A program made the translations under genes and the position numbers. Source: a virus (lineage: Duplodnaviria; Heunggongvirae; Uroviricota; Caudoviricetes). From it: a stretch of DNA of 18,144 nt. This document shows positions 2,727 through 18,144 of the stretch, one piece after another; position 1 is the first letter of the stretch, and every line of letters begins with the position of its first letter. The stretch lies in IMG/VR virus record IMGVR_UViG_3300029843_000306; one strand, written 5' to 3'. The notes beneath the pieces were generated by a model. It saw only the letters and a program-made list of their open reading frames with translations. It did not search any database and had not been told where the DNA came from.

Positions 2727-3877
<1,151 letters not shown>

Positions 3878-5766: not shown

Positions 5767-5965
5767 TCACTTTTTTAAATCCAACGACAGACGGCTGGCA
5801 TTTAAGTATTGTGAAATATTATCAAATGTAATCATCATTGATTTACAAAAGATACATTTTGCCCCGAAAGGATTCATGTCAGAAACATCAAAAGATGATG
5901 TTCTATACTGGGAACCATGACAACACGGGCATCTAAAGTGAATATGGTTTGTAATATTGTCTACC

Positions 5966-6178
5966 TCAAAGCGCCACTACATGAACAGCGGCAGGACCTT
6001 TAGGTCCGTTCTCAATACCAAATTCAACTTCCTGATTCTCAGTTAATGTTTTGAAATCGTTGCTCTGAATTGCTGAGAAATGGACAAACACATCTTTGCT
6101 GCCATCTTTCGGCGTGATGAAACCAAAACCTTTTTCAGGGTTAAACCATTTCACTAAACCAGTCATTTTGTTAGACAT
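5966..6178 (-). CDS. cspI: Cold-shock protein, CspA family
   Basis: 70 aa; RNP1/RNP2 motifs (KGFGFI, VFVHF); sequence recognised as CspI; long AT-rich 5' leader ending AAAGGTAATAATTATG. Confidence 0.9.
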
Positions 6179-6540
6179 AATTATTACCTTTTGAAGAAAT
6201 TAGCCCTTGGGCAGAATGGTCCGAAAAAAAATATCAGAGAGAAAAACCAACAAGGAAATCTCAAGAGGTACAAATAATAAAATTATAACAATGACTGCTT
6301 CAGATAAATTTGTAACAAACCAGAACACCATTAACGCATGATTAACCACCCATAGCAAGGATTACTTTTGTAAAGAAAAACACAGCAATGAAAGAATAGC
6401 TTTATTTATTAATAAAACGTGTCATTCTGATTAAGACCTTTTATCTTACCCTTAAGATTTCAGGAATTTTGGCTCATGGAAGAGTCCTTTTTATTTAAAT
6501 TTTACATTCCGCGATGTAAATGTTCCGATTTAATATTACC

Positions 6541-8570: not shown

Positions 8571-8849
8571 GATTGTGGTGCTTTTTGTGGGAGTCATCCA
8601 CTTACGCACTTTGTTTTGCCATGCCAGCAGTTAGCTTCTGCTGTAAAACTATTCATGCAGCAAACCTGCACTTCACCACAATGGTTAGCATACTTTTCCT
8701 GATTAAGATTTTGCCAAATATGCTAGCCATTGTTTCATGTATTGGACCTCCTTACTTTTTATTAAAGAGATCCAATATTCACTACTCTGTCCGTATCTCT
8801 ACTCAGGCATCAGCCTTCTTCGTTATCGTATACAGACGAGCGATGAATT

Positions 8850-9065
8850 TTAATCAGTAATGATGACATTTGCTGCTGCAGGACCTTTAGCACCACTCTC
8901 TATAGAGAAGGTAACCTTTTGACCTTCAAATAAGGTTCGATAATTATCATTCTGAATCGCAGAAAAATGCACAAACACATCTTTACTACCATCAACAGGA
9001 GAAATAAAGCCGAAACCTTTATCAGCGTTAAACCATTTTACTAAACCAGTCATTTTATTTGACAT
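8850..9065 (-). CDS. cspB: Cold-shock protein, CspA family
   Basis: 71 aa; sequence recognised as CspB; RNP motifs present. Confidence 0.9.
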
Positions 9066-9365
9066 TCTACATTCCTTAACTTGAGCCTTTCGGCATAAAT
9101 GGTTTGCATAACAGAAACGACTTCGTACTTAATTGGAGAGACTCAAAGAAGGAATAAGTGAATAACACCTGAAATGAGAACTGCTTTAGTAAACTACTTC
9201 GTATATCGTCTGTTCTTCAAACCGACGCAATCATTAACGCATAGTTGAACATATGAAGCAATGTTTATTTTAGACATCCAGCCATCTTCAACCCCATCAA
9301 AAAACTATAGCTTTCTTCAGGAACGTGTGTATAGTGCGCCAAGTTATCAGTATTAAGGAATTTTT

Positions 9366-9999: not shown

Positions 10000-10752
10000 T
10001 TATCTCGTCACCTTCCTCAATTGCGCTTCCGCGTATGCTTCTTCCTGCCAGCACTTTGTTACCAGTTTACCAATGACGTCCGCATACCCCTTATACCACT
10101 GATAATCGGTCAGGTCTGGTACCAGCTTCTGGACATGACGTCGTGCCAGCGTGGTCGGTAAACGACTAAACCGGTTTCCATTACAACGCCCACAAATCTT
10201 ATATACCGGTACGCCATGAAACCGGGTTCTTTTTTCATCCAGAACAATCCCTTTACCCTTACACCCTCTGCACGCTGTGCTGGCTTCGCCCTTACCATGG
10301 CAATGCTGACATAGTTCCTTCACCCATTCTTCCTTGATTACAGATTCCCCGCGTCTGTAGTGTTTCACCACTTCGCGCAATACATTATAAAATCCCGTAC
10401 CTGAACAATGCTCACAGCGAGCCTTACTTGCCGCAGACCTGGAGTAATCAGCAAAGGCAAAACTCACGAGGTAAGGAATAATCTGTAACCGGATTTCTTC
10501 ACTCAATTTGTTCAATGTCGGGTTATCCAGTGCCATCGCGTAATTTAGCAGGCCTTCAATCGCAAACTGAGGGTCCTGAACACCAACTTTTGCCAGAAAT
10601 AAGGCCAACCCAAGTGGTGCTTTCGACTGCACCATCCCCTGCGCTGCCATTACATCCGTAATTGTTAAACAACCGGTGCCTGTCGCTGGAGCGTCATCGC
10701 TCAATTTTGGAGATTTTGGGGAGTAATATTTTGGTAAGGCTTCAAGGTTCAT
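10000..10752 (-). CDS. quuQ: Late-gene antitermination protein Q (phage 21/82-type)
   Basis: 250 aa from ATG 10752; multiple CxxC zinc-binding motifs (CEHCSGTG, CQHCHGKG, CRGCKGKG, CGRCNG); sequence recognised as QuuQ; track ORF has a 10-codon extension. Confidence 0.9.
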   Translation of the reverse strand: MNLEALPKYYSPKSPKLSDDAPATGTGCLTITDVMAAQGMVQSKAPLGLALFLAKVGVQDPQFAIEGLLNYAMALDNPTLNKLSEEIRLQIIPYLVSFAFADYSRSAASKARCEHCSGTGFYNVLREVVKHYRRGESVIKEEWVKELCQHCHGKGEASTACRGCKGKGIVLDEKRTRFHGVPVYKICGRCNGNRFSRLPTTLARRHVQKLVPDLTDYQWYKGYADVIGKLVTKCWQEEAYAEAQLRKVTR

Positions 10753-10765
10753 GCTCGTTCTCCAC

Positions 10766-11815
10766 TTACGCCAGTACGCCAATTGTCAGCGCGCGATCGA
10801 TAAAACGAAATATCAGCTCCAGTTGGGAGCCATACTTATCTTCAAATGCCACTGTATCCGTATGCAGCTCGTTGTGATGCTTTCTGCACAAAGGCAACAC
10901 AAAGAGATCATGTGCTTTTGTTCCCATTCCGCCCTGCCCGTGACCAATCAGATGATGCGGATCGTCGGCTGGCATACCGCAGCAAGCACACGGCTGTGTC
11001 TTAACCCAACGTGTGTATTTCTCCTTAACCCAGCGGCGACGTTTAGGCAGCTTCATGAAAGATTCCGGAGACTCTGGATCAACGGTGATGCTTACCACCG
11101 TCTTTTCCTGTGGTGATTTTTGTTGCTGGTGGGCGTAAGGCAACGGTGCAAGATTTTTTGTGCGTTGTTTCAATATGCTGGTGGCGGTCTGCTCTCCCGG
11201 TACGATGTCGCTTTCGCGGTACACCGAGCAGATTTTTTCCGCTGGTAATCCCAGCGAACGACGCGATACAGCCTCAGGTAGTGCATCCACCACCTGATTG
11301 CAGACCGCCCACCAGGATAATTCAGCCAAAGATAATTCCCGCTCCTGCGTACCGCTTATTGCGTGACGGATGACGTCAATCACCCATGCTGTCAGATTTT
11401 GTTGAGCAAGCAGCTCCAGTGATTCCGATGTCTGGTCACGCAGTTGGTTGTCGCAGTGCCAGCACAACACCATTGCGCCGGTACCATAACGGTGAATGAC
11501 TGTTTCAGTGTGATGGTAATCGCCATTAGGCCACTGGCAGGATGTAACATGACGTAATAGCCAGTCGGACAATGCGCCAACGCCGCCAGCAGCACGAATC
11601 ACCCGTTCGTTACTAAAAAACGGCAGCAATGTTTTGTCTTCCGCCAGCGGCTGGCGAACGGCAGGAACGACTCCGGATGGCAGATTACGCATGCTTTTTG
11701 GTTCCGGTTCCACCAGCACTCGAGGATTATGAAATATCTGTATGGATTCACGGCCCGGCTTAAGGACCACCAGCCCAAGCTCAGGCACCAGAACAGGTCT
11801 AAGTAATACCCGCAC
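10766..11815 (-). CDS. ydfU: DUF968-family protein with HNH-like nuclease motif
   Basis: 349 aa from GTG 11815 (track ORF extends to 11854); C-terminal HNH-like motif CACCGMPADDPHHLIGHGQGG…CRKHHNELH. Confidence 0.75.
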   Translation of the reverse strand: MRVLLRPVLVPELGLVVLKPGRESIQIFHNPRVLVEPEPKSMRNLPSGVVPAVRQPLAEDKTLLPFFSNERVIRAAGGVGALSDWLLRHVTSCQWPNGDYHHTETVIHRYGTGAMVLCWHCDNQLRDQTSESLELLAQQNLTAWVIDVIRHAISGTQERELSLAELSWWAVCNQVVDALPEAVSRRSLGLPAEKICSVYRESDIVPGEQTATSILKQRTKNLAPLPYAHQQQKSPQEKTVVSITVDPESPESFMKLPKRRRWVKEKYTRWVKTQPCACCGMPADDPHHLIGHGQGGMGTKAHDLFVLPLCRKHHNELHTDTVAFEDKYGSQLELIFRFIDRALTIGVLA

Positions 11816-11816
11816 G

Positions 11817-12095
11817 TTACCTCCAGATCCGTTGCTGGAAAGTGCGGGACGCACGTGGTGGGCGTTCGGAATAAGGCAGCCTGACAGAGATTATCCAGTG
11901 CCGATAGTCGAGACTGAGAGCTTTCTTAACCTCGAACCCGCGCCTGCGGTAAGAATGAATCAGCCATTCGGCCTGTTCTGCAGTGCATGGAGGGTGCTGG
12001 AACCATTCAGACTTGAATGCGTGAGAATACCGCCCGTGCGTGCAGGCAAGAACGGGCGAATTATCAGAATTGTAATATTTTGCGTTGCGTGCCAT
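11817..12095 (-). CDS. Hypothetical small protein with Cys/His residues, upstream of and abutting ydfU
   Basis: 92-aa ORF with GGAG Shine-Dalgarno 5 nt before ATG 12095; stop abuts the ydfU start; no family assignment made. Confidence 0.5.
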   Translation of the reverse strand: MARNAKYYNSDNSPVLACTHGRYSHAFKSEWFQHPPCTAEQAEWLIHSYRRRGFEVKKALSLDYRHWIISVRLPYSERPPRASRTFQQRIWR

Positions 12096-12161
12096 CGGTT
12101 TTCTCCGGTGGCACGGTGTTACTCAGCGGGAGTTCAGCCCCGCGCAAGATTGTAGATGAGT

Positions 12162-12413
12162 TTATTCTCCTGAAAAAGCAGAAAAGCCAGCTTTTATTCC
12201 GATCTCTTTCAATGCCTGTAATGAAGTGACAAACTCACCTTCGCGCAAGATAAATCCGTCCGTGACCCGAGCATCCACAAAATTAATTAACGCAGCCCCA
12301 TTCTTTCGCAAACACATAATGCGGTAATGACTAACAAGATTTCCATTTTCAACGCACACAGCATAGAGGCCATCTTCACAAAAAATTTTACGCAGTTCTT
12401 CGATGTTCATCAT
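12162..12413 (-). CDS. rem: Small prophage protein Rem
   Basis: 83 aa; position between ydfU and hokD and length match K-12 rem; sequence identity is from recollection only. Confidence 0.6.
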   Translation of the reverse strand: MMNIEELRKIFCEDGLYAVCVENGNLVSHYRIMCLRKNGAALINFVDARVTDGFILREGEFVTSLQALKEIGIKAGFSAFSGE

Positions 12414-12539
12414 CAGAATCCTTCCGGATAATTAGCTCTCCCCTTTAAGGGACCATCCCTCTTATCCCTGCGCGCTACTTAAGTATTTTTGATTCTATTC
12501 CGGCACCGTCCAGAACTTCAAACGCGTTGAAAATAAAAA

Positions 12540-12565
12540 CAAAAACCCGCCGAAGCGGGTTAAGT
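12540..12565 (-). terminator. Rho-independent terminator of the relB-relE-hokD operon
   Basis: Minus strand reads ACCCGC-UUCG-GCGGGU followed by UUUUGUUUUUAUUUU. Confidence 0.8.
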
Positions 12566-12629
12566 GCGGGTGCGTTGAGGATGCCTGCCACATCAGAGGT
12601 GGCGAGGGATTTCTCCCCCGCCGGGTCTC

Positions 12630-12785
12630 TTACTCCTCAGGTTCGTAAGCTGTGAAGACAGCGACCTCCGTCTGGCCGGTTCGGATTCGTACCTCGCAGA
12701 GGTCTTTCCTCGTTACCAGTGCCGTCACTATGACGGTTAAACAGATGACGATCAGGGCGATTAACATCGCCTTTTGCTGCTTCAT
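12630..12785 (-). CDS. hokD: Hok-family type I toxin (small membrane peptide)
   Basis: 51 aa translated by hand: MKQQKAMLIALIVICLTVIVTALVTRKDLCEVRIRTGQTEVAVFTAYEPEE; absent from the ORF track; downstream of relE as in relBEF. Confidence 0.85.
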   Translation of the reverse strand: MKQQKAMLIALIVICLTVIVTALVTRKDLCEVRIRTGQTEVAVFTAYEPEE

Positions 12786-12856
12786 AGCCTGCTTCTCCTG
12801 TCAACGCAAAGCAGAAGTGTCACCTTCGGTGCGAAACAGAGATGTCATGCTTTGGT

Positions 12857-13144
12857 TCAGAGAATGCGTTTGACCGCCTCGCTATATACTTCCGAGCGTT
12901 CTCTTTTCCCAACAGAAATCACGAAAACGACAACTTTCTCGTCTATAACCTGGTATACAAGGCGATAGCCTGAAGACCGGAGCTTAATCTTGTAACAATC
13001 AGGCATACCACGGAGCTTGTTTGCTTCAATCCGGGGTGACTCAAGTACTTCAACCAGCTTCTTTTTCAACTGTTCACGTACCGTCGAGCCCAGCTTTCGC
13101 CATTCCTTTAGTGCCCGCTCGTCAAAATCCAGAAAATACGCCAT
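12857..13144 (-). CDS. relE: RelE mRNA interferase toxin (type II TA)
   Basis: 95 aa; sequence recognised as RelE; start overlaps the relB stop (ATGA). Confidence 0.95.
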   Translation of the reverse strand: MAYFLDFDERALKEWRKLGSTVREQLKKKLVEVLESPRIEANKLRGMPDCYKIKLRSSGYRLVYQVIDEKVVVFVISVGKRERSEVYSEAVKRIL

Positions 13145-13383
13145 CAGAGTTCATCCAGCGTCACACGTACTGGCTTAGGATTACGAAGCCGTTCTTTCAC
13201 TATCTCCACAAGTTCAGCATCTTCATCACTCAGGAGTGTCTGTTTGAACGGCAAGCGTTCATTGTCAGCGATATACTCGAGCATGAGACGAAGCGCTTCA
13301 GAAGGAGTTACACCCATTTTTTCAAGCGCGGCGTAAGAACGCGCTTTAAGTTCATCGTCAATACGCAGGTTAATGCTACCCAT
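13144..13383 (-). CDS. relB: RelB antitoxin (RHH family)
   Basis: 79 aa; sequence recognised as RelB; AAGAGGTG Shine-Dalgarno upstream. Confidence 0.95.
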   Translation of the reverse strand: MGSINLRIDDELKARSYAALEKMGVTPSEALRLMLEYIADNERLPFKQTLLSDEDAELVEIVKERLRNPKPVRVTLDEL

Positions 13384-13385
13384 GT

Positions 13386-13440
13386 CTTACACCTCTTGTA
13401 ATTACAAATGTCATTACAAGTATCGCACTACAACATGCTT
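13386..13440 (-). promoter_or_regulatory. relBE promoter/operator region (relO-like repeats)
   Basis: Repeated TTGTAAT/TACAAG hexads (CTTGTAATTACAAATGTCATTACAAG on the + strand) directly upstream of relB. Confidence 0.55.
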
Positions 13441-13713
13441 AGGGCAAGTCACGAAGGAAGTCAGAAAGTAGTCGTAAGAACGGTGATCACTGTCCGCTTT
13501 GTGCCAGGAGCAGCCATTGCTAAGTCCATCCTGTATTGTGCAGGTCAGCTCGTTTTTAAAGAGTCCGGCCATCATCTTACTGGTACAGACACCATATACT
13601 TTGTGACGGTCAGGCTACATATGCACAACTCAACTTATTCATCTATTTTTTGCTTTAGCATGTCAGTGTTGCTTTCTCGTCGGCGGGTGAGCGGTGACCT
13701 GACCTGTCGATAA
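13408..13713 (+). CDS. ydfV: Hypothetical ORF at the position of K-12 ydfV (weak coding evidence)
   Basis: 101-aa ORF starting inside the relB operator; no recognisable domain; listed only because the equivalent ORF is annotated in K-12. Confidence 0.25.
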   Translation: MSLQVSHYNMLRASHEGSQKVVVRTVITVRFVPGAAIAKSILYCAGQLVFKESGHHLTGTDTIYFVTVRLHMHNSTYSSIFCFSMSVLLSRRRVSGDLTCR

Positions 13714-13865
13714 AGGAACGTAACACGTTTTATGCAACACCCGCATGCGGCAGAAAATTATTGCCGAACGTTTACCCCTGTCAACAAGCTTTACTTTCTG
13801 AGGCGCGCCAGCCCGCGAGGAAAACAATCTGAACATCAAACAATTAATGACACAAGAAATACGAT

Positions 13866-13892
13866 TAAAGATTTTTTTGTGCATGCCGATAG
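13866..13892 (+). promoter_or_regulatory. Sigma-28 (FliA) class promoter of flxA
   Basis: TAAAGATT (13866-13873), 11-nt spacer, GCCGATAG (13885-13892), against the consensus TAAAGTTT-N11-GCCGATAA; GGAG Shine-Dalgarno and ATG follow. Confidence 0.75.
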
Positions 13893-13915
13893 TGCTTTTT
13901 TAAAAGGAGAAATCT

Positions 13916-14248
13916 ATGTCTGTCACAATTCAGGGAAATACCTCAACCGTTATTTCAAACAACTCCGCCCCGGAAGGAACATCAGAAATAGCCAAAATCA
14001 CAAGACAAATTCAGGTGCTGACTGAAAAGCTTGGGAAAATCTCATCGGAAGAGGGGATGACGACACAGCAGAAAAAAGAAATGGCTGCATTGGTACAGAA
14101 GCAAATTGAAAGCCTCTGGGCTCAACTGGAGCAGTTGTTAAGGCAGCAGGCAGAGAAAAAGAATGAAGACGCGACAGTTCAGCCTGATAAAAAAGAAGAG
14201 AAAAAAGACGATACAAATACCGCTGGCACCATTGATATTTACGTCTAA
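13916..14248 (+). CDS. flxA: FlxA (FliA-regulated protein of unknown function)
   Basis: 110 aa; sequence recognised as FlxA; coiled-coil/charged composition. Confidence 0.9.
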   Translation: MSVTIQGNTSTVISNNSAPEGTSEIAKITRQIQVLTEKLGKISSEEGMTTQQKKEMAALVQKQIESLWAQLEQLLRQQAEKKNEDATVQPDKKEEKKDDTNTAGTIDIYV

Positions 14249-14261
14249 GTGACAGCCGTAT

Positions 14262-14290
14262 TGTGGCCCTCATCGGGCCACTTTTCGCCA
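14262..14290 (+). terminator. Rho-independent terminator after flxA
   Basis: GTGGCCC-TCATC-GGGCCAC followed by TTTTCGCC. Confidence 0.65.
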
Positions 14291-14537
14291 TCAGCCTTTT
14301 CTTTAAAGACATATTATCTTTGTATCATTTCTGATAGTTAACATTACAAGATATAAGTAATGGACGCACTCCCAATTAGTCTATTTAAATCGCCACGAGT
14401 TTAACTGACAACCCATGATCAATTATGAATTGCAACTATTTCTGTAGTCACTTTTGTGGGGACAGTCCACAAAACTGCCAACTTCCGCTTCTTGCTCTTA
14501 GCGGACATTAGCATAGGCTATTTATCCGGAGCTTAAG

Positions 14538-16505
14538 TTGCACGCCATTGGGTGGGTTAAGCATAAATGTATTCCTGGTGCTAAATGGCCCGAAATTCAG
14601 GCAGAGATGCGCATCTGGAAAAAACGTCGCGAAGGTGAACGCAAGGAAACCGGAAAATACACGTCTGTTGTTGATCTCGCCCGCGCCAGAGCCAATCAAC
14701 AGAACACTGAAAATTCAACAGGAAAAATCAGCCCGGTCATTGCTGCCACTCATCGCGAATACAAGCAGACATGGAAAACACTGGATGACGAACTGGCCTA
14801 CGCTCTCTGGCCTGGTGATGTGGATGCCGGAAACATTGACGGCAGCATCCATCGCTGGGCAAAAAATGAAGTTATCGACAACGACCGCGAAGACTGGAAG
14901 CGTATCTCGGCATCAATGCGCAAACAGCCTGATGCCCTTCGCTACGACCGCCAGACTATTTTTGGCCTTGTCCGTGAACGTCCGATCGACATTCACAAAG
15001 ACCCTGTGGCACTGAACAAATACATTACTGAATACCTGACTACAAAGGGCGTGTTTGAAGATGAAGGAAGAAATCAGAGCGCAACTGATACTCTCTCGTC
15101 GCCAGTACCAGAAACTGATGCAGTGGAAACGGCAATTCCGGACAACGAAAAAACCGAATGCAAAGTGGAAGTCGAACCATCTGTAGAGCGTGAAGGGCCG
15201 TTCTACTTCCTCTTCACCGACAAGGATGGCGAAAAATACGGTCGCGCAAACAAACTTTCTGGTCTGGATAAGGCACTGGCTGCAGGGGCTACTGAAATCA
15301 CGAAAGAAGAATATTTCGCCCGCAAAAACGGTACATACTCAGGTTCACAACAAAATACTGGTGCATCTGACACGACCGCACAACCAGAGCCGGTAAAAGT
15401 TACCGCTGACGAAGTAAACAAAATTATGCAGGCAGCCAATATCAGCCAGCCTGACGCCGATAAGTTGCTTGCTGCATCACGTGGTGAATTTATTGAAGGG
15501 ATTAGCGACCCGAATGATCCGAAATGGGTTAAGGGGATCCAGACCCGCGATACTGTGAACCAGAACCAGCAAGAAACGGAACAGAACGACCAGAAAGCGG
15601 AACAAAACAGCCCAAATACGCAACAAAACGAGCCAGAAACGAAACAACCTGAACCAGTAGTGCAACAGGAACCGGAAAAAATCTGCACCGCCTGCGGTCA
15701 GAGCGGTGGTGGCAACTGCCCTGATTGTGGTGCGGTGATGGGCGACGCAACATACCAGGAAACATTCGATGACAAGAACCAGGTTGAAGTTCAGGAAGAC
15801 GATTCGGAGAAAATGGAAGGCGCTGAACATCCACACAAGGAGAATGCTGGCAGCGCTCAGGACCACGCCAGCGATAGTGAAACTGGCGAGATGGCAGATC
15901 CCTTAATTACGGTGAACGGTCATCACGTTATCACATCCACCAGCAGGACTTGTGACCATCTAATGATCGACCTTGAAACCATGGGAAAAAATCCTGATGC
16001 CCCGATTATCTCAATAGGTGCAATATTTTTCGATCCGCAAACCGGAGATATGGGACCGGAATTTAGTAAGACTATCGATCTGGAAACTGCTGGCGGAGTC
16101 ATTGATCGGGACACCATTAAATGGTGGCTTAAGCAATCACGCGAAGCGCAATCTGCCATTATGACCGATGAAATCCCGTTAGATGATGCACTGTTACAAT
16201 TGCGGGAATTTATCGACGAAAACTCCGGTGAATTTTTTGTTCAGGTTTGGGGAAATGGAGCCAACTTCGACAACACGATTTTGCGCCGTTCATACGAACG
16301 GCAGGGGATCCCCTGCCCGTGGCGTTACTACAACGATCGCGATGTACGCACAATCGTTGAGCTGGGAAAAGCCATGGACTTCGATGCCAGAACGGCTATT
16401 CCATTCGAAGGTGAGCGCCATAATGCACTTGATGACGCCCGTTACCAGGCAAAATACGTTTCAGTTATCTGGCAAAAACTGATCCCGAGTCAGGCTGATT
16501 CTTAA
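14538..16505 (+). CDS. Large early-region protein: N-terminal domain of unknown function, disordered acidic/Gln-rich linker, CxxC…CxxC zinc ribbon, C-terminal DEDDh (DnaQ-like) 3'-5' exonuclease domain
   Basis: 655-codon ORF; start is TTG 14538 (GGAG 8 nt upstream) or ATG 14607; C-terminus carries DLETMG, GNGANFD and H-NALDDA motifs of the DEDDh fold; zinc ribbon CTACGQSGGGNCPDCG. Confidence 0.7.
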   Translation: MHAIGWVKHKCIPGAKWPEIQAEMRIWKKRREGERKETGKYTSVVDLARARANQQNTENSTGKISPVIAATHREYKQTWKTLDDELAYALWPGDVDAGNIDGSIHRWAKNEVIDNDREDWKRISASMRKQPDALRYDRQTIFGLVRERPIDIHKDPVALNKYITEYLTTKGVFEDEGRNQSATDTLSSPVPETDAVETAIPDNEKTECKVEVEPSVEREGPFYFLFTDKDGEKYGRANKLSGLDKALAAGATEITKEEYFARKNGTYSGSQQNTGASDTTAQPEPVKVTADEVNKIMQAANISQPDADKLLAASRGEFIEGISDPNDPKWVKGIQTRDTVNQNQQETEQNDQKAEQNSPNTQQNEPETKQPEPVVQQEPEKICTACGQSGGGNCPDCGAVMGDATYQETFDDKNQVEVQEDDSEKMEGAEHPHKENAGSAQDHASDSETGEMADPLITVNGHHVITSTSRTCDHLMIDLETMGKNPDAPIISIGAIFFDPQTGDMGPEFSKTIDLETAGGVIDRDTIKWWLKQSREAQSAIMTDEIPLDDALLQLREFIDENSGEFFVQVWGNGANFDNTILRRSYERQGIPCPWRYYNDRDVRTIVELGKAMDFDARTAIPFEGERHNALDDARYQAKYVSVIWQKLIPSQADS

Positions 16506-16577
16506 TGTTCAACTGTCGCCGGTTGTGACTGGTATTCTGCAACCGGCGCTCGTCTGATGTAAGAGATAAAGAAATCG

Positions 16578-16829
16578 ATGAGCGAAGTAATCATGATTGT
16601 CTCTCCCGGCAAATGGGTATCCGAAGAGCAGTTAATTGCGCTGAAAGGAATAAAAAAAGGTACGTTAAAAAAGGCCCGGGAAAAATCGTTTATGGAAGGA
16701 AGGGAATATAAGCATGTCGCTCATGACGGTATGCCATGGGATAACAGTCCATGCTTTTACAACCTGGAAGAAATTGATCGCTGGATTGAGCGCCAGGCAT
16801 CAGCGAGACCAAGACGTCATCTTACTTGA
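16578..16829 (+). CDS. Excisionase-like / small DNA-binding protein upstream of int
   Basis: 83-aa ORF directly upstream of and co-oriented with the integrase; basic; family assignment is by position and general resemblance only. Confidence 0.5.
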   Translation: MSEVIMIVSPGKWVSEEQLIALKGIKKGTLKKAREKSFMEGREYKHVAHDGMPWDNSPCFYNLEEIDRWIERQASARPRRHLT

Positions 16830-16863
16830 CTAAAAGCCACACTAACTAATGAGAGAAGTTGAA

Positions 16864-18144
16864 ATGAAATATCCGACAGGCGTGGAAAACCATGGAGGGA
16901 AATTACGTATCTGGTTTGTTTATAAAGACGTAAGAGTCAGGGAAAATCTGGGGGTTCCTGACACAGCAAAAAACAGGCGCGTTGCAGGTGAACTACGCTC
17001 CTCTGTTTGTTACGCAATAAAAACTGGTGTTTTCGACTATGCAAAACAGTTTCCCTCCTCACGCAATCTGGAAAAATTTGGTGAGGCCCGACAAGATTTA
17101 ACCATAAAAGAACTGGCTGAAAAATTTCTGGCACTGAAAGAAACTGAAGTCGCCAAAACATCACTCAACACATACCGTGCCGTCATCAAAAATATCCTGA
17201 GCATAATCGGTGAAAAAAATCTTGCCTCATCGATTAATAAAGAAAAATTACTGGAGGTTCGTAAAGAGTTACTGACTGGATACCAGATCCCCAAAAGTAA
17301 CTATATTGTTACACAACCAGGGAGATCGGCTGTAACTGTAAATAATTACATGACAAATCTTAACGCCGTGTTCCAGTTTGGTGTTGATAACGGTTACCTG
17401 GCAGATAATCCGTTTAAGGGGATCTCGCCATTAAAGGAATCAAGAACCATTCCGGATCCTCTTTCGCGGGAAGAATTTATCCGTCTTATCGATGCGTGCA
17501 GAAATCAGCAAGCAAAAAATTTATGGTGTGTTTCTGTTTATACTGGAGTTCGCCCTGGTGAGCTGTGTGCACTTGGATGGGAGGACATAGATCTGAAAAA
17601 TGGAACAATGATGATCAGGAGAAATTTAGCAAAAGACCGTTTCACGGTACCAAAAACACAGGCGGGAACCAATCGGGTCATTCATCTTATTAAGCCAGCA
17701 ATCGACGCTCTCCGGAGTCAGATGACATTAACGAGACTGAGCAAAGAGCATATCATTGATGTTCACCTCAGAGAGTATGGCAGAACAGAAAAACAAAAAT
17801 GCACCTTTGTTTTTCAACCTGAAGTGTCAGCGAGAGTAAAAAATTATGGTGACCATTTTACCGTTGACTCAATAAGGCAGATGTGGGACGCAGCGATAAA
17901 ACGTGCCGGACTCCGCCATCGAAAATCATATCAGTCGAGACATACTTATGCCTGCTGGTCGCTGACAGCTGGTGCTAACCCGGCATTTATAGCAAACCAG
18001 ATGGGCCATGCAGATGCGCAAATGGTATTTCAGGTATACGGAAAATGGATGTCTGAAAACAATAATGCACAGGTAGCTTTGTTAAATACACAGTTAAGCG
18101 AGTTTGCCCCAACCATGCCCCATAACGAAGCAATGAAAAATTAA
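16864..18144 (+). CDS. Tyrosine site-specific integrase (phage integrase family), apparently full length
   Basis: 426 aa from ATG 16864 (track ORF starts at 16849 without a Shine-Dalgarno); C-terminal catalytic motifs R (VYTGVRPGEL), H-x-x-R (SRHTYA) and Y (VYGKW); window ends at its stop codon. Confidence 0.9.
   Translation: MKYPTGVENHGGKLRIWFVYKDVRVRENLGVPDTAKNRRVAGELRSSVCYAIKTGVFDYAKQFPSSRNLEKFGEARQDLTIKELAEKFLALKETEVAKTSLNTYRAVIKNILSIIGEKNLASSINKEKLLEVRKELLTGYQIPKSNYIVTQPGRSAVTVNNYMTNLNAVFQFGVDNGYLADNPFKGISPLKESRTIPDPLSREEFIRLIDACRNQQAKNLWCVSVYTGVRPGELCALGWEDIDLKNGTMMIRRNLAKDRFTVPKTQAGTNRVIHLIKPAIDALRSQMTLTRLSKEHIIDVHLREYGRTEKQKCTFVFQPEVSARVKNYGDHFTVDSIRQMWDAAIKRAGLRHRKSYQSRHTYACWSLTAGANPAFIANQMGHADAQMVFQVYGKWMSENNNAQVALLNTQLSEFAPTMPHNEAMKN

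Follow-up and report, generated by a model that had tools for sequence, protein, structure and literature searches.

A small gene missing from the MG1655 record lies between rem and ydfU in the Escherichia coli prophage Qin

Gene organization upstream of quuQ

The window, meaning the whole 18,144-nucleotide stretch of viral DNA analysed here (IMG/VR record IMGVR_UViG_3300029843_000306), is the E. coli Qin prophage, with 99.95% identity to MG1655 across window positions 10511-14524; its sequence is also 100% identical to many strains besides MG1655. The genes of interest run on the minus strand in the order rem, orf92, ydfU, quuQ, and the first three reading frames lie where the initial annotation had placed them. 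The run is headed by rem (12162-12413; 83 aa, annotated as 'protein Rem'), followed by a 66-nt spacer (12096-12161) in which the orf92 Shine-Dalgarno can be read from the sequence. orf92 (11817-12095) encodes a basic protein of 92 aa with a pI of 10.2, and ydfU (10766-11815; 349 aa from a GTG start) encodes a DUF968 protein of predicted His-Me finger (HNH) type. Starting 13 nt downstream of ydfU is quuQ/ydfT (10000-10752), annotated as a Q-type antiterminator and matching Pfam Antiterm at E 4.2e-54; because of this gene we take the locus to be the equivalent of a nin region. Upstream of rem, a consensus scan marked the hokD intrinsic terminator (12544-12561) and a promoter-like site (12492-12521), both also on the minus strand; sites were no more numerous than in shuffled sequence.

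Rem belongs to this module only loosely. The initial annotation had grouped it with the other two genes, which holds within the Qin lineage, where 79 of the 82 Escherichia loci that could be judged have rem ahead of orf92, but not elsewhere: rem was not found at the loci of other genera that carry a relative of orf92. The protein matches phrog_340, a PHROG without assigned function, and Pfam, NCBIfam and PADLOC searches returned no family for it. A SocB match of 14.9 bits was dismissed as meaningless.

orf92 as a conserved gene

The start of orf92 is preceded by GGAG, 6 nt before the ATG, the good Shine-Dalgarno described previously. Against divergent alleles the gene has a dN/dS of 0.10-0.22. 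Hundreds of alleles keep both length and start, with full-length homologues (90-92 aa) reaching down to 63% identity, so that the conservation of gene and start on which the initial annotation depended is borne out; more distant members of the family, 35-50% identical, come from ten or more genera. PGAP annotates the frame as hypothetical protein WP_012304870.1, and MG1655 record NC_000913.3 carries no annotation of it at the corresponding coordinates, 1644306-1644584. By the dN/dS, the full-length homologues and the PGAP annotation, orf92 is a real gene under selection. A literature search with the protein accession and nin-region terms returned nothing relevant.

The 92-aa protein, to which no family had been assigned, matches PHROG 1212 at E 1.7e-35, with residues 27-92 covering profile positions 1-66, the whole profile; its Gifsy-2 homologue matches at E 3.3e-35. 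An exhaustive search of 1.84 billion cluster representatives with the family profile yielded only 107 representatives, nearly all of them stand-alone proteins of about 66 aa. The family is basic (median pI 9.7). Homologues of the core include Orf QD1 of N15, which is longer at 142 aa, and four 66-aa proteins, Gifsy-2 STM1021.1n, mEp237_051, phiES15 gp17 and PY54 ORF47. These differ from orf92 in lacking its 26-residue N-terminal extension and in being followed by NinG, YbcO or another gene, not YdfU. PdcA of P1 (66 aa, upstream of PdcB) was rejected as a homologue (hhalign E 0.22). Pfam (E up to 1), NCBIfam and PADLOC gave no family for orf92. Identity with NinE or NinF was rejected, as neither Pfam profile matched, and the Erwinia and Pantoea phages with an orf92-family member have NinF as a gene of its own.

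Alignment and an AF2 model divide the protein into three parts. Codons 1-26 (12018-12095) encode a variable extension, predicted to be disordered, that aligns within the Escherichia clade only and precedes the start of the PHROG 1212 profile at residue 27; residues 1-23 have pLDDT below 50. Codons 27-73 (11877-12017) encode a conserved beta-alpha-beta-beta core, with predicted strands at 30-33, 55-60 and 67-73, a helix at 39-52, and a block-mean pLDDT of 90-94 over residues 31-70. Conserved core residues are W31, H34, C37, T38, Q41, Y49, R52, G53, L60, D63, W67 and L73. Codons 74-92 (11820-11876) encode a basic, Pro/Arg-rich tail with a charge of +4 that ends in Q-Q-R-I-W-R and is predicted, at lower pLDDT, to form a short helix at 84-90.

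The K-12 allele contains two Cys and five His, and had been labelled a Cys/His protein. Across the family this label does not survive: C37 is the sole invariant Cys, H34 is 89% conserved, and C18 and the other His are not conserved, so a zinc-binding protein, which needs three or four conserved ligands, was rejected. Searches of PDB sequences with orf92 and with its family profile returned nothing significant, and Foldseek with the orf92 model found nothing in the PDB below E 0.1. The best PDB matches were R3H domains at E 0.1-0.5, and no significant structural match supports DNA binding. An R3H domain was rejected, since the R3H matches have E 0.1-1.4 and TM 0.31-0.41 and the conserved R-x3-H is absent from the family alignment. 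Against viral models, Foldseek gave a sole match, the homologue N15 Orf QD1.

The orf92-ydfU junction

As the initial annotation had noted, the orf92 stop abuts the ydfU start. The junction (11813-11825, minus strand) reads TGG AGG TAA C GTG, which puts the TAA stop 1 nt from the GTG start and the ydfU ribosome-binding site, GGAGG, within the last two orf92 codons. The spacing is identical in 82 of 85 Escherichia loci, and an analogous TGGGGGTGAnnATG junction stands before NinG and YbcO genes in other genera. Common to all three nuclease families is the pattern Trp-Gly/Arg-stop, 1-2 nt, start, with the Shine-Dalgarno inside the last codons. Such packing permits translational coupling, as had been proposed. 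We infer that ydfU is translationally coupled to orf92, because ribosomes on orf92 would terminate 1 nt before the GTG, on top of the ydfU Shine-Dalgarno. Stops and starts this close together are frequent in the early operons of phages, and the packing of orf92 and ydfU therefore proves little by itself.

YdfU as a predicted His-Me finger protein

YdfU matches Pfam DUF968 (PF06147) at 255.7 bits against a cut-off of 27.8, with the full 171-position model spanning residues 160-346, and phrog_96 'HNH endonuclease' at E 1.1e-170; it has further weak matches to HNHc_6 and to the RecA-dependent nuclease Ref. A longer reading of 362 aa from the GTG at 11854 is unsupported, as homologues start at MRxLLxP. 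The C-terminal HNH or treble-clef module, residues 268-349 (10769-11014), is organised as C276-x2-C279 ... D285-P-H287-H288 ... H292 ... D303 ... C310-x3-H314 ... H318. Within it, C276, H287, H292, D303, P308 and L309 are invariant in an alignment running from Qin to Vibrio phage Her and to P1 PdcB at 28% identity, and the two remotest sequences show variation at the second knuckle, C310/H314. The C-terminal HNH motif reported previously is therefore well founded, and by these profile and residue matches YdfU is a His-Me finger (HNH) protein. This identity was already known: YdfU has been assigned to His-Me finger group 7, the group of YbcO (Jablonska et al. 2017, PMC5714182), for which a NinG-like recombination role has been hypothesised.

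An AF2 model of YdfU, built on a shallow alignment of 77-89% identity (the 120 homologues listed are all close relatives), is of too low quality to use, with a mean pLDDT of 48, and only residues 270-349 reach 70-88. In the PDB its fold comes closest to HNH domains, those of IscB and Cas5-HNH (probability 0.96), but at E 0.32-2.4. In the N-terminal half, residues 93-126 (11438-11539) hold a second invariant motif, C-Q...L-C-W-H-C-D-N..R, modelled at low confidence as beta-beta-alpha. Profile comparison with the C-terminal HNH was not significant (E 0.11-0.84) and gave no support for a duplicated HNH here. For an Orf/NinB-like domain ahead of the HNH, we found no NinB Pfam match (E up to 1), and AF2 confidence is low in that region. 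The YdfU profile matched no PDB sequence, including 1PC6 and the DLP12 YbcO structure 3g27.

Relatives of YdfU place these features in context. At about 96 aa, YbcO (DUF1364, PDB 3g27) is a minimal domain, whereas YdfU has some 265 extra N-terminal residues, including the second invariant Cys/His motif. Gram-positive DUF968 proteins such as phiETA Orf20, described by Curtis et al. 2014 (PMC4118853) as fusions of an Orf-like domain and HNH, belong to the same Pfam family and lack a further N-terminal region present in YdfU. P1 PdcB is a full-length homologue, with 26% identity over 91% of the protein; it shares the N-terminal CQ...LCWH.DN motif and the C-terminal His but differs at several Zn-ligand positions. 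Like ydfU, its gene comes shortly before one for a late-gene regulator, here lpa.

A packaging-associated HNH role for YdfU, of the terminase-accessory HK97 gp74 type, was rejected because ydfU has no adjacent terminase. In Qin, SfV and KpF5 the gene directly precedes Q, and the Nu1-like gene of the window (3257-3877) is about 7 kb away. PADLOC returned no anti-phage defence match for Rem, orf92 or YdfU. The packaging, homing or exclusion roles suggested earlier thus find no support, and the conserved neighbours are recombination genes.

Gene neighbourhoods of the orf92 family

We compared 36 loci carrying a small gene of this family, comprising 34 species-level genome loci and four phages minus one duplicate and one truncated locus, from many Enterobacterales. 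Pfam calls for the downstream gene were NinG in 21, YbcO in nine and DUF968 in six, with some cross-hits, and in two of the 36 the downstream gene had no family. NinG, YbcO and YdfU are all members of the His-Me finger superfamily, within which they fall into groups 24 and 7 (PMC5714182). Upstream of the small gene there is usually DUF1367 (phrog_319, 'NinB/Orf homologous recombination mediator'), and otherwise YbcN (NinB family), an RdgC-like protein or Rem. Comparison of DUF1367 with phiES15 YbcN by hhalign was not significant, so its NinB-like label rests on the PHROG annotation and a database note; the DUF1367 profile found nothing significant among PDB sequences.

The link to YdfU depends on lineage. 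A first scan of viral contigs gave near-identical Qin-type loci only and was used for within-lineage statistics. YdfU lies directly downstream of orf92 in all 85 judgeable Escherichia loci. The functional pair proposed by the initial annotation is not obligate, because none of 84 YdfU loci from other lineages has an orf92-family gene: no member lay within 2.5 kb in 80 SfV-type loci, SfV, KpF5, Vibrio phage Her or P1 PdcB. We therefore rejected an obligate two-gene system of nuclease and cognate inhibitor or partner, which is also opposed by the finding that small-protein similarity does not track nuclease family. Small proteins 82-88% identical to one another adjoin either NinG or YbcO, an arrangement that speaks against a pair of co-adapted proteins and is what mosaic exchange at gene boundaries would be expected to give.

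Several phages depart from the usual order. An Erwinia phage has a cytosine methylase and NinF between the small gene and NinG, and a Hafnia phage has a 59-aa ORF there. The gene directly after the small gene does not encode a His-Me finger nuclease in PY54 or PhiR46_1. These exceptions still have recombination genes beside them, such as a RecE-like exonuclease in PhiR46_1. In the Edwardsiella phage GF-2 the small gene is followed by NinG and has no DUF1367 upstream.

Interpretation of the locus

The locus is an ordinary prophage module with one overlooked gene, orf92. Our best explanation, to which we give slightly more than an even chance, is that the stretch is a shrunken nin region (early-right, just upstream of Q) of a lambdoid prophage, and that it carries a recombination module in which a small basic accessory protein is co-translated. 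The Qin locus occupies the same position, between early genes and Q, as the lambda nin region with its Orf/NinB, Rap/NinG and NinE/NinF genes, and both have a His-Me finger nuclease just upstream of Q with a small ORF before it. They differ in that Qin has no NinB-like gene here and has YdfU (DUF968) in place of NinG. Most orf92 relatives sit between the NinB-like DUF1367 (phrog_319) gene and NinG itself, and YbcO-type genes are one of the three types found directly downstream. Lambda Orf and Rap, unlike orf92, have been characterised biochemically (PMC4118853; PMC5714182).

YdfU takes the slot held by NinG/Rap or YbcO in other lambdoid phages, and because of that slot it is probably a recombination or branched-DNA-processing endonuclease. 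Termination of orf92 translation 1 nt before the GTG would couple YdfU synthesis to that of the small protein. The orf92 protein, in turn, would most likely be a nucleic-acid-binding accessory factor in the same DNA-recombination process, and is probably not a dedicated subunit of any single nuclease.

It is rather unlikely that orf92 is instead a stand-alone small gene of the nin region whose function is unrelated, such as host takeover or regulation, and whose adjacency to the nuclease reflects conserved lambdoid order and tight packing. Adjacency does break down in distant members, and outside Escherichia the small gene is tied to DUF1367 on its upstream side no less closely than to the gene after it, which is what a fixed slot in a syntenic block would predict. 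Equivalent slots in lambda-type phages are filled by NinE and NinF, which are small and unrelated, and orf92 has no significant fold match. Against this, every context, exceptions included, is rich in recombination genes (NinB-like, RdgC-like, RecE-like, NinG, YbcO, YdfU, RusA), and a strongly basic protein fits nucleic-acid binding.

We consider it unlikely that the small protein is a dedicated partner, whether a regulatory, an inhibitory immunity-like or a targeting subunit, that binds the downstream nuclease and is made in fixed proportion to it through coupling. A His-Me finger nuclease does follow immediately in about 34 of the 36 loci, across three families and several upstream contexts; the junction, with the nuclease Shine-Dalgarno inside the small gene's last codons, is conserved; the Escherichia loci are uniform in having YdfU next; and GF-2 keeps the adjacency to NinG even without DUF1367. 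These points are offset by the YdfU-family nucleases, which mostly lack the small gene (0/84 loci). Lambda NinG and DLP12 YbcO are likewise not known to be accompanied by it; their upstream slots are held by NinF and NinE, respectively. Near-identical small proteins pair with NinG or YbcO without co-variation with nuclease type, and distant members are separated from NinG or precede unrelated genes.

A more specific proposal, and in our view a distinctly unlikely one, is that orf92 and the other PHROG 1212 proteins serve the His-Me finger nucleases of phage recombination (NinG/Rap, YbcO and YdfU) as a common accessory factor that had gone unrecognised. Made by termination-reinitiation coupling just ahead of the nuclease and acting between an Orf/NinB-type mediator and that nuclease, such a factor would target the nuclease to particular DNA structures or restrain its activity. 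For phage biology, the gain is a defined genomic habitat for the uncharacterised small-protein family PHROG 1212: the lambdoid recombination block of Enterobacterales phages, where it is flanked by a NinB-like mediator and a His-Me finger nuclease. This habitat provides a concrete, cheaply testable hypothesis and reveals no new kind of system.

Last, a strong Rho-dependent terminator has been reported upstream of ydfU in K-12. That the 92-codon frame is a chance ORF in an untranslated ydfU leader holding this terminator is highly improbable and, as far as sequence evidence goes, refuted: its absence from the curated MG1655 record and the termination reported between rem and ydfU would fit, but the low dN/dS, the length and start kept in hundreds of alleles, the homologues in other genera, the confidently predicted core fold and the good Shine-Dalgarno all speak against it. 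E. coli K-12 thus gains a conserved gene of 92 codons between rem and ydfU, which is under purifying selection and is missing from the reference annotation of MG1655. The reported terminator also suggests that orf92 is poorly translated in the resident prophage. orf92 sits exactly at this terminator, which affects how both the terminator and ydfU expression are read.

A conserved gene between rem and ydfU

The window is an E. coli lambdoid prophage of the Qin type: positions 10500-12700 occur with 100% identity in many E. coli chromosomes, and 10511-14524 matches MG1655 at 99.95% identity. Four genes lie head to tail on the minus strand, namely rem (12162-12413, 83 aa), orf92 (11817-12095, 92 codons), ydfU (10766-11815, 349 aa, GTG start) and the Q-type antiterminator gene quuQ/ydfT (10000-10752). 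A GGAG Shine-Dalgarno sits 6 nt 5' of the orf92 ATG. The orf92/ydfU junction reads TGG AGG TAA C GTG, so a single nucleotide separates the orf92 stop from the ydfU start, and GGAGG, the Shine-Dalgarno of ydfU, falls inside the final two orf92 codons. Direct reading therefore agrees with the initial annotation on the ORFs, the orf92 Shine-Dalgarno and the stop abutting ydfU. An older, 362-aa YdfU (GTG 11854) lacks support: homologues as remote as those in Vibrio phage Her and P1 (PdcB) begin at the equivalent of MRVLL.

orf92 is a gene. Its protein retrieved 129 cluster representatives. Full-length forms (90-92 aa) occur in E. coli, Shigella, E. albertii and E. marmotae, the most divergent at 63% identity. 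dN/dS is 0.10-0.22 (Nei-Gojobori, against at least seven divergent alleles); against one such sequence, L092, dN is 0.13 and dS 0.60. PGAP annotates orf92 as the hypothetical protein WP_012304870.1, found in other E. coli genomes, and the curated MG1655 record (NC_000913.3) leaves the rem-ydfU interval empty, with orf92 (1644306-1644584) unannotated.

Family and predicted structure of the small protein

Searches of Pfam, NCBIfam and PADLOC gave no family for orf92. Residues 27-92 match PHROG 1212 (function unknown; E 1.7e-35), which supplies the family that the initial annotation could not assign. By tblastn against phage genomes, the core of ~66 aa recurs at 35-48% identity in Gifsy-2, SPN3UB, mEp237, phiES15 and PY54 and in phages of Klebsiella, Edwardsiella, Hafnia, Erwinia and Pantoea. 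Only 107 members, nearly all of them stand-alone proteins of ~66 aa, emerged from an exhaustive profile search across 1.84 billion cluster representatives. The family is small and limited to Enterobacterales; a variable N-terminal extension (24-26 residues) is peculiar to its Escherichia clade.

The protein had been described as a Cys/His protein, a label that does not hold in a structural sense: C37 is the sole invariant Cys/His in the family alignment, and H34 is 89% conserved. The family is basic (median pI 9.7; K-12 protein pI 10.2, net charge +9). An AlphaFold2 model built from a 35-sequence alignment predicts a disordered N-terminus (pLDDT <50 over residues 1-23), a core at pLDDT 90-94 (strand 30-33, helix 39-52, strands 55-60 and 67-73) and an Arg/Pro-rich tail of lower confidence with a short helix at 84-90. 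Foldseek found nothing significant in the PDB, the best matches being R3H domains and the PlyG wall-binding domain (E 0.1-0.5); among viral models it returned only a homologue, N15 Orf QD1 (E 1.9e-3, 32% identity).

YdfU as a predicted His-Me finger nuclease

That YdfU is an HNH/DUF968 protein is already known from the literature. It matches the full Pfam DUF968 model (255.7 bits) and phrog_96, 'HNH endonuclease' (E 1.1e-170), with weak matches to HNHc_6 and the RecA-dependent nuclease Ref family. YdfU and YbcO (DUF1364, PDB 3g27) have been placed together in His-Me finger group 7, for which a NinG-like recombination role has been proposed (Jablonska et al. 2017, PMC5714182); Gram-positive DUF968 proteins have been described as Orf-like domains fused to HNH (Curtis et al. 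2014, PMC4118853).

We aligned YdfU proteins from Qin, SfV, Klebsiella KpF5, Vibrio Her and P1 (PdcB), at 28-85% identity. In the C-terminal module C276, H287, H292, D303, P308 and L309 are invariant, and the HNH motif noted in the initial annotation is accordingly conserved. A second invariant motif, CQ...LCWHCDN..R, lies in the N-terminal half (residues 93-126; 11438-11539, minus strand), where C93-Q94, L117-C118-W119, D122-N123 and R126 persist down to PdcB. It forms a low-confidence beta-beta-alpha element in the AF2 model, and comparing its profile with that of the C-terminal HNH module gave no significant match. Overall the YdfU model is poor, with a mean pLDDT of 48, and the PDB structures closest to it, at non-significant E-values, were the HNH domains of IscB and Cas5-HNH.

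P1 PdcB (function unknown; sequence L088, 2405-3448) is a full-length YdfU homologue, 26% identical over 91%; its gene is flanked by doc and by lpa, which encodes the late-promoter activator. Three longer database ORFs (P0282-P0284) contain YdfU at 100% identity, one N-terminally extended to 438 aa and the others 607-aa YdfU-Q fusions with Pfam family PF27659; alleles with a frameshift or read-through could explain them.

The small gene usually precedes exchangeable nucleases

In Escherichia, YdfU lies directly downstream of orf92 in 85 of 85 judgeable loci, with identical spacing in 82, and 79 of 82 loci have Rem on the upstream side. A forward survey from the small gene covered 34 species-level genome loci and four phage loci, of which 36 were scored. 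Pfam assigned the downstream genes of these 36 loci to NinG (21), YbcO (9) or DUF968 (6), with some cross-matches; the sole downstream genes without a family were those of PY54 and one Kosakonia locus. All three are His-Me finger families (PMC5714182). The junction reads ...TGG GGG TGA nn ATG before NinG and YbcO and ...TGG AGG TAA c GTG before YdfU, and in all junctions compared the purine-rich final codons of the small gene are the nuclease gene's Shine-Dalgarno.

The converse does not hold. A small-family HMM that recovered all positive controls found no member in 80 SfV-type YdfU loci (+/-2.5 kb) or near the YdfU homologues of SfV, KpF5, Vibrio Her and P1. PdcA (66 aa), upstream of PdcB in P1, is unrelated to orf92.

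Small proteins sharing 82-88% identity precede NinG in Kluyvera and a YbcO-type gene in mEp237; between mEp237 (L085) and the Kluyvera prophages L106, L111 and L112 the identity is 86-88%. This indicates that the nuclease was swapped while the small protein stayed unchanged. Both downstream genes start ATGGCnAA, so the conserved junction may be a recombination breakpoint for nuclease cassette exchange. Adjacency is looser in distant members: Edwardsiella GF-2 retains the small gene then NinG, a cytosine methylase and NinF separate the two in Erwinia phage 59, a 59-aa ORF does so in Hafnia Pocitis76, and PhiR46_1 has a RecE-like exonuclease downstream.

Outside Escherichia the small gene is as tightly coupled to its upstream gene as to its downstream one. 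Most of these loci have DUF1367 (phrog_319, 'NinB/Orf homologous recombination mediator') in the upstream place. Elsewhere it is taken by YbcN (NinB family), an RdgC-like protein or Rem. The usual order is NinB-like mediator, small gene, His-Me finger nuclease, often RusA, then Q. The constant feature of PHROG 1212 genes is their habitat, the nin-region recombination block, not a specific partner, and the Qin nin region (Rem, orf92, YdfU, Q) is a reduced version of it.

On this basis we interpret orf92 as a small, basic protein with an accessory role in the phage recombination or DNA-processing module. Its translation would be coupled to that of the following nuclease, and YdfU would be the Rap/YbcO-equivalent nuclease of the Qin-type prophage lineage. 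Taken jointly, translational coupling, DNA binding and a recombination role are modestly probable. That orf92 is an unrelated small nin gene, adjacent through synteny alone, seems doubtful, although the looser distant loci suit it. A role as dedicated partner of the nuclease, regulating or inhibiting it, fits the strict Escherichia pairing and is about as unlikely, since near-identical small proteins adjoin different nucleases. That orf92 is no gene is scarcely credible given its dN/dS. The initial observation is thus confirmed and its interpretation supported in part; packaging, homing and exclusion roles find no support, since no terminase is adjacent, PADLOC gave no match and the neighbors are consistently recombination genes. 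The new points are modest: a selected gene missing from the MG1655 annotation, a family placed in lambdoid recombination modules, and a conserved, putative coupling junction with three His-Me finger nuclease families, although orf92 is an obligate partner of none.

Expression context and other features of the window

The terminator upstream of ydfU is listed among the strongest Rho-dependent ones in E. coli (PMC9160355), and in rho mutants rem barely changes while ydfU is derepressed (PMC9160355 supplement). This places termination in or near orf92 (~11815-12161, minus strand), and points to poor translation of orf92 while the prophage is silent; such termination sits awkwardly with orf92 translation. 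The lambda nin region contains Rho-dependent terminators, which the Qin terminator resembles. A consensus scan alone marked two minus-strand sites within 12492-12561, an intrinsic terminator-like hairpin (AACCCGCTTCGGCGGGTT plus a T-run) just 3' of hokD and a weak sigma-70-like promoter just before rem.

Right of flxA (14517-18144, plus strand) the window diverges from MG1655 and the ydfW-dicC-dicA-dicF-dicB block is absent. A 655-aa ORF there (14538-16505, plus), with an exonuclease domain of the Rv2179c-like 3'-5' type, resembles an intact ydfE-type gene; an integrase ORF (16849-18144, plus) follows without IS2 interruption. On the minus strand, Rfam identifies two cspA-type thermoregulator leaders at the prophage cold-shock genes (cspB, cspI/cspF region; 5939-6324 and 8834-9226) and an IS009 RNA match (1273-1471).
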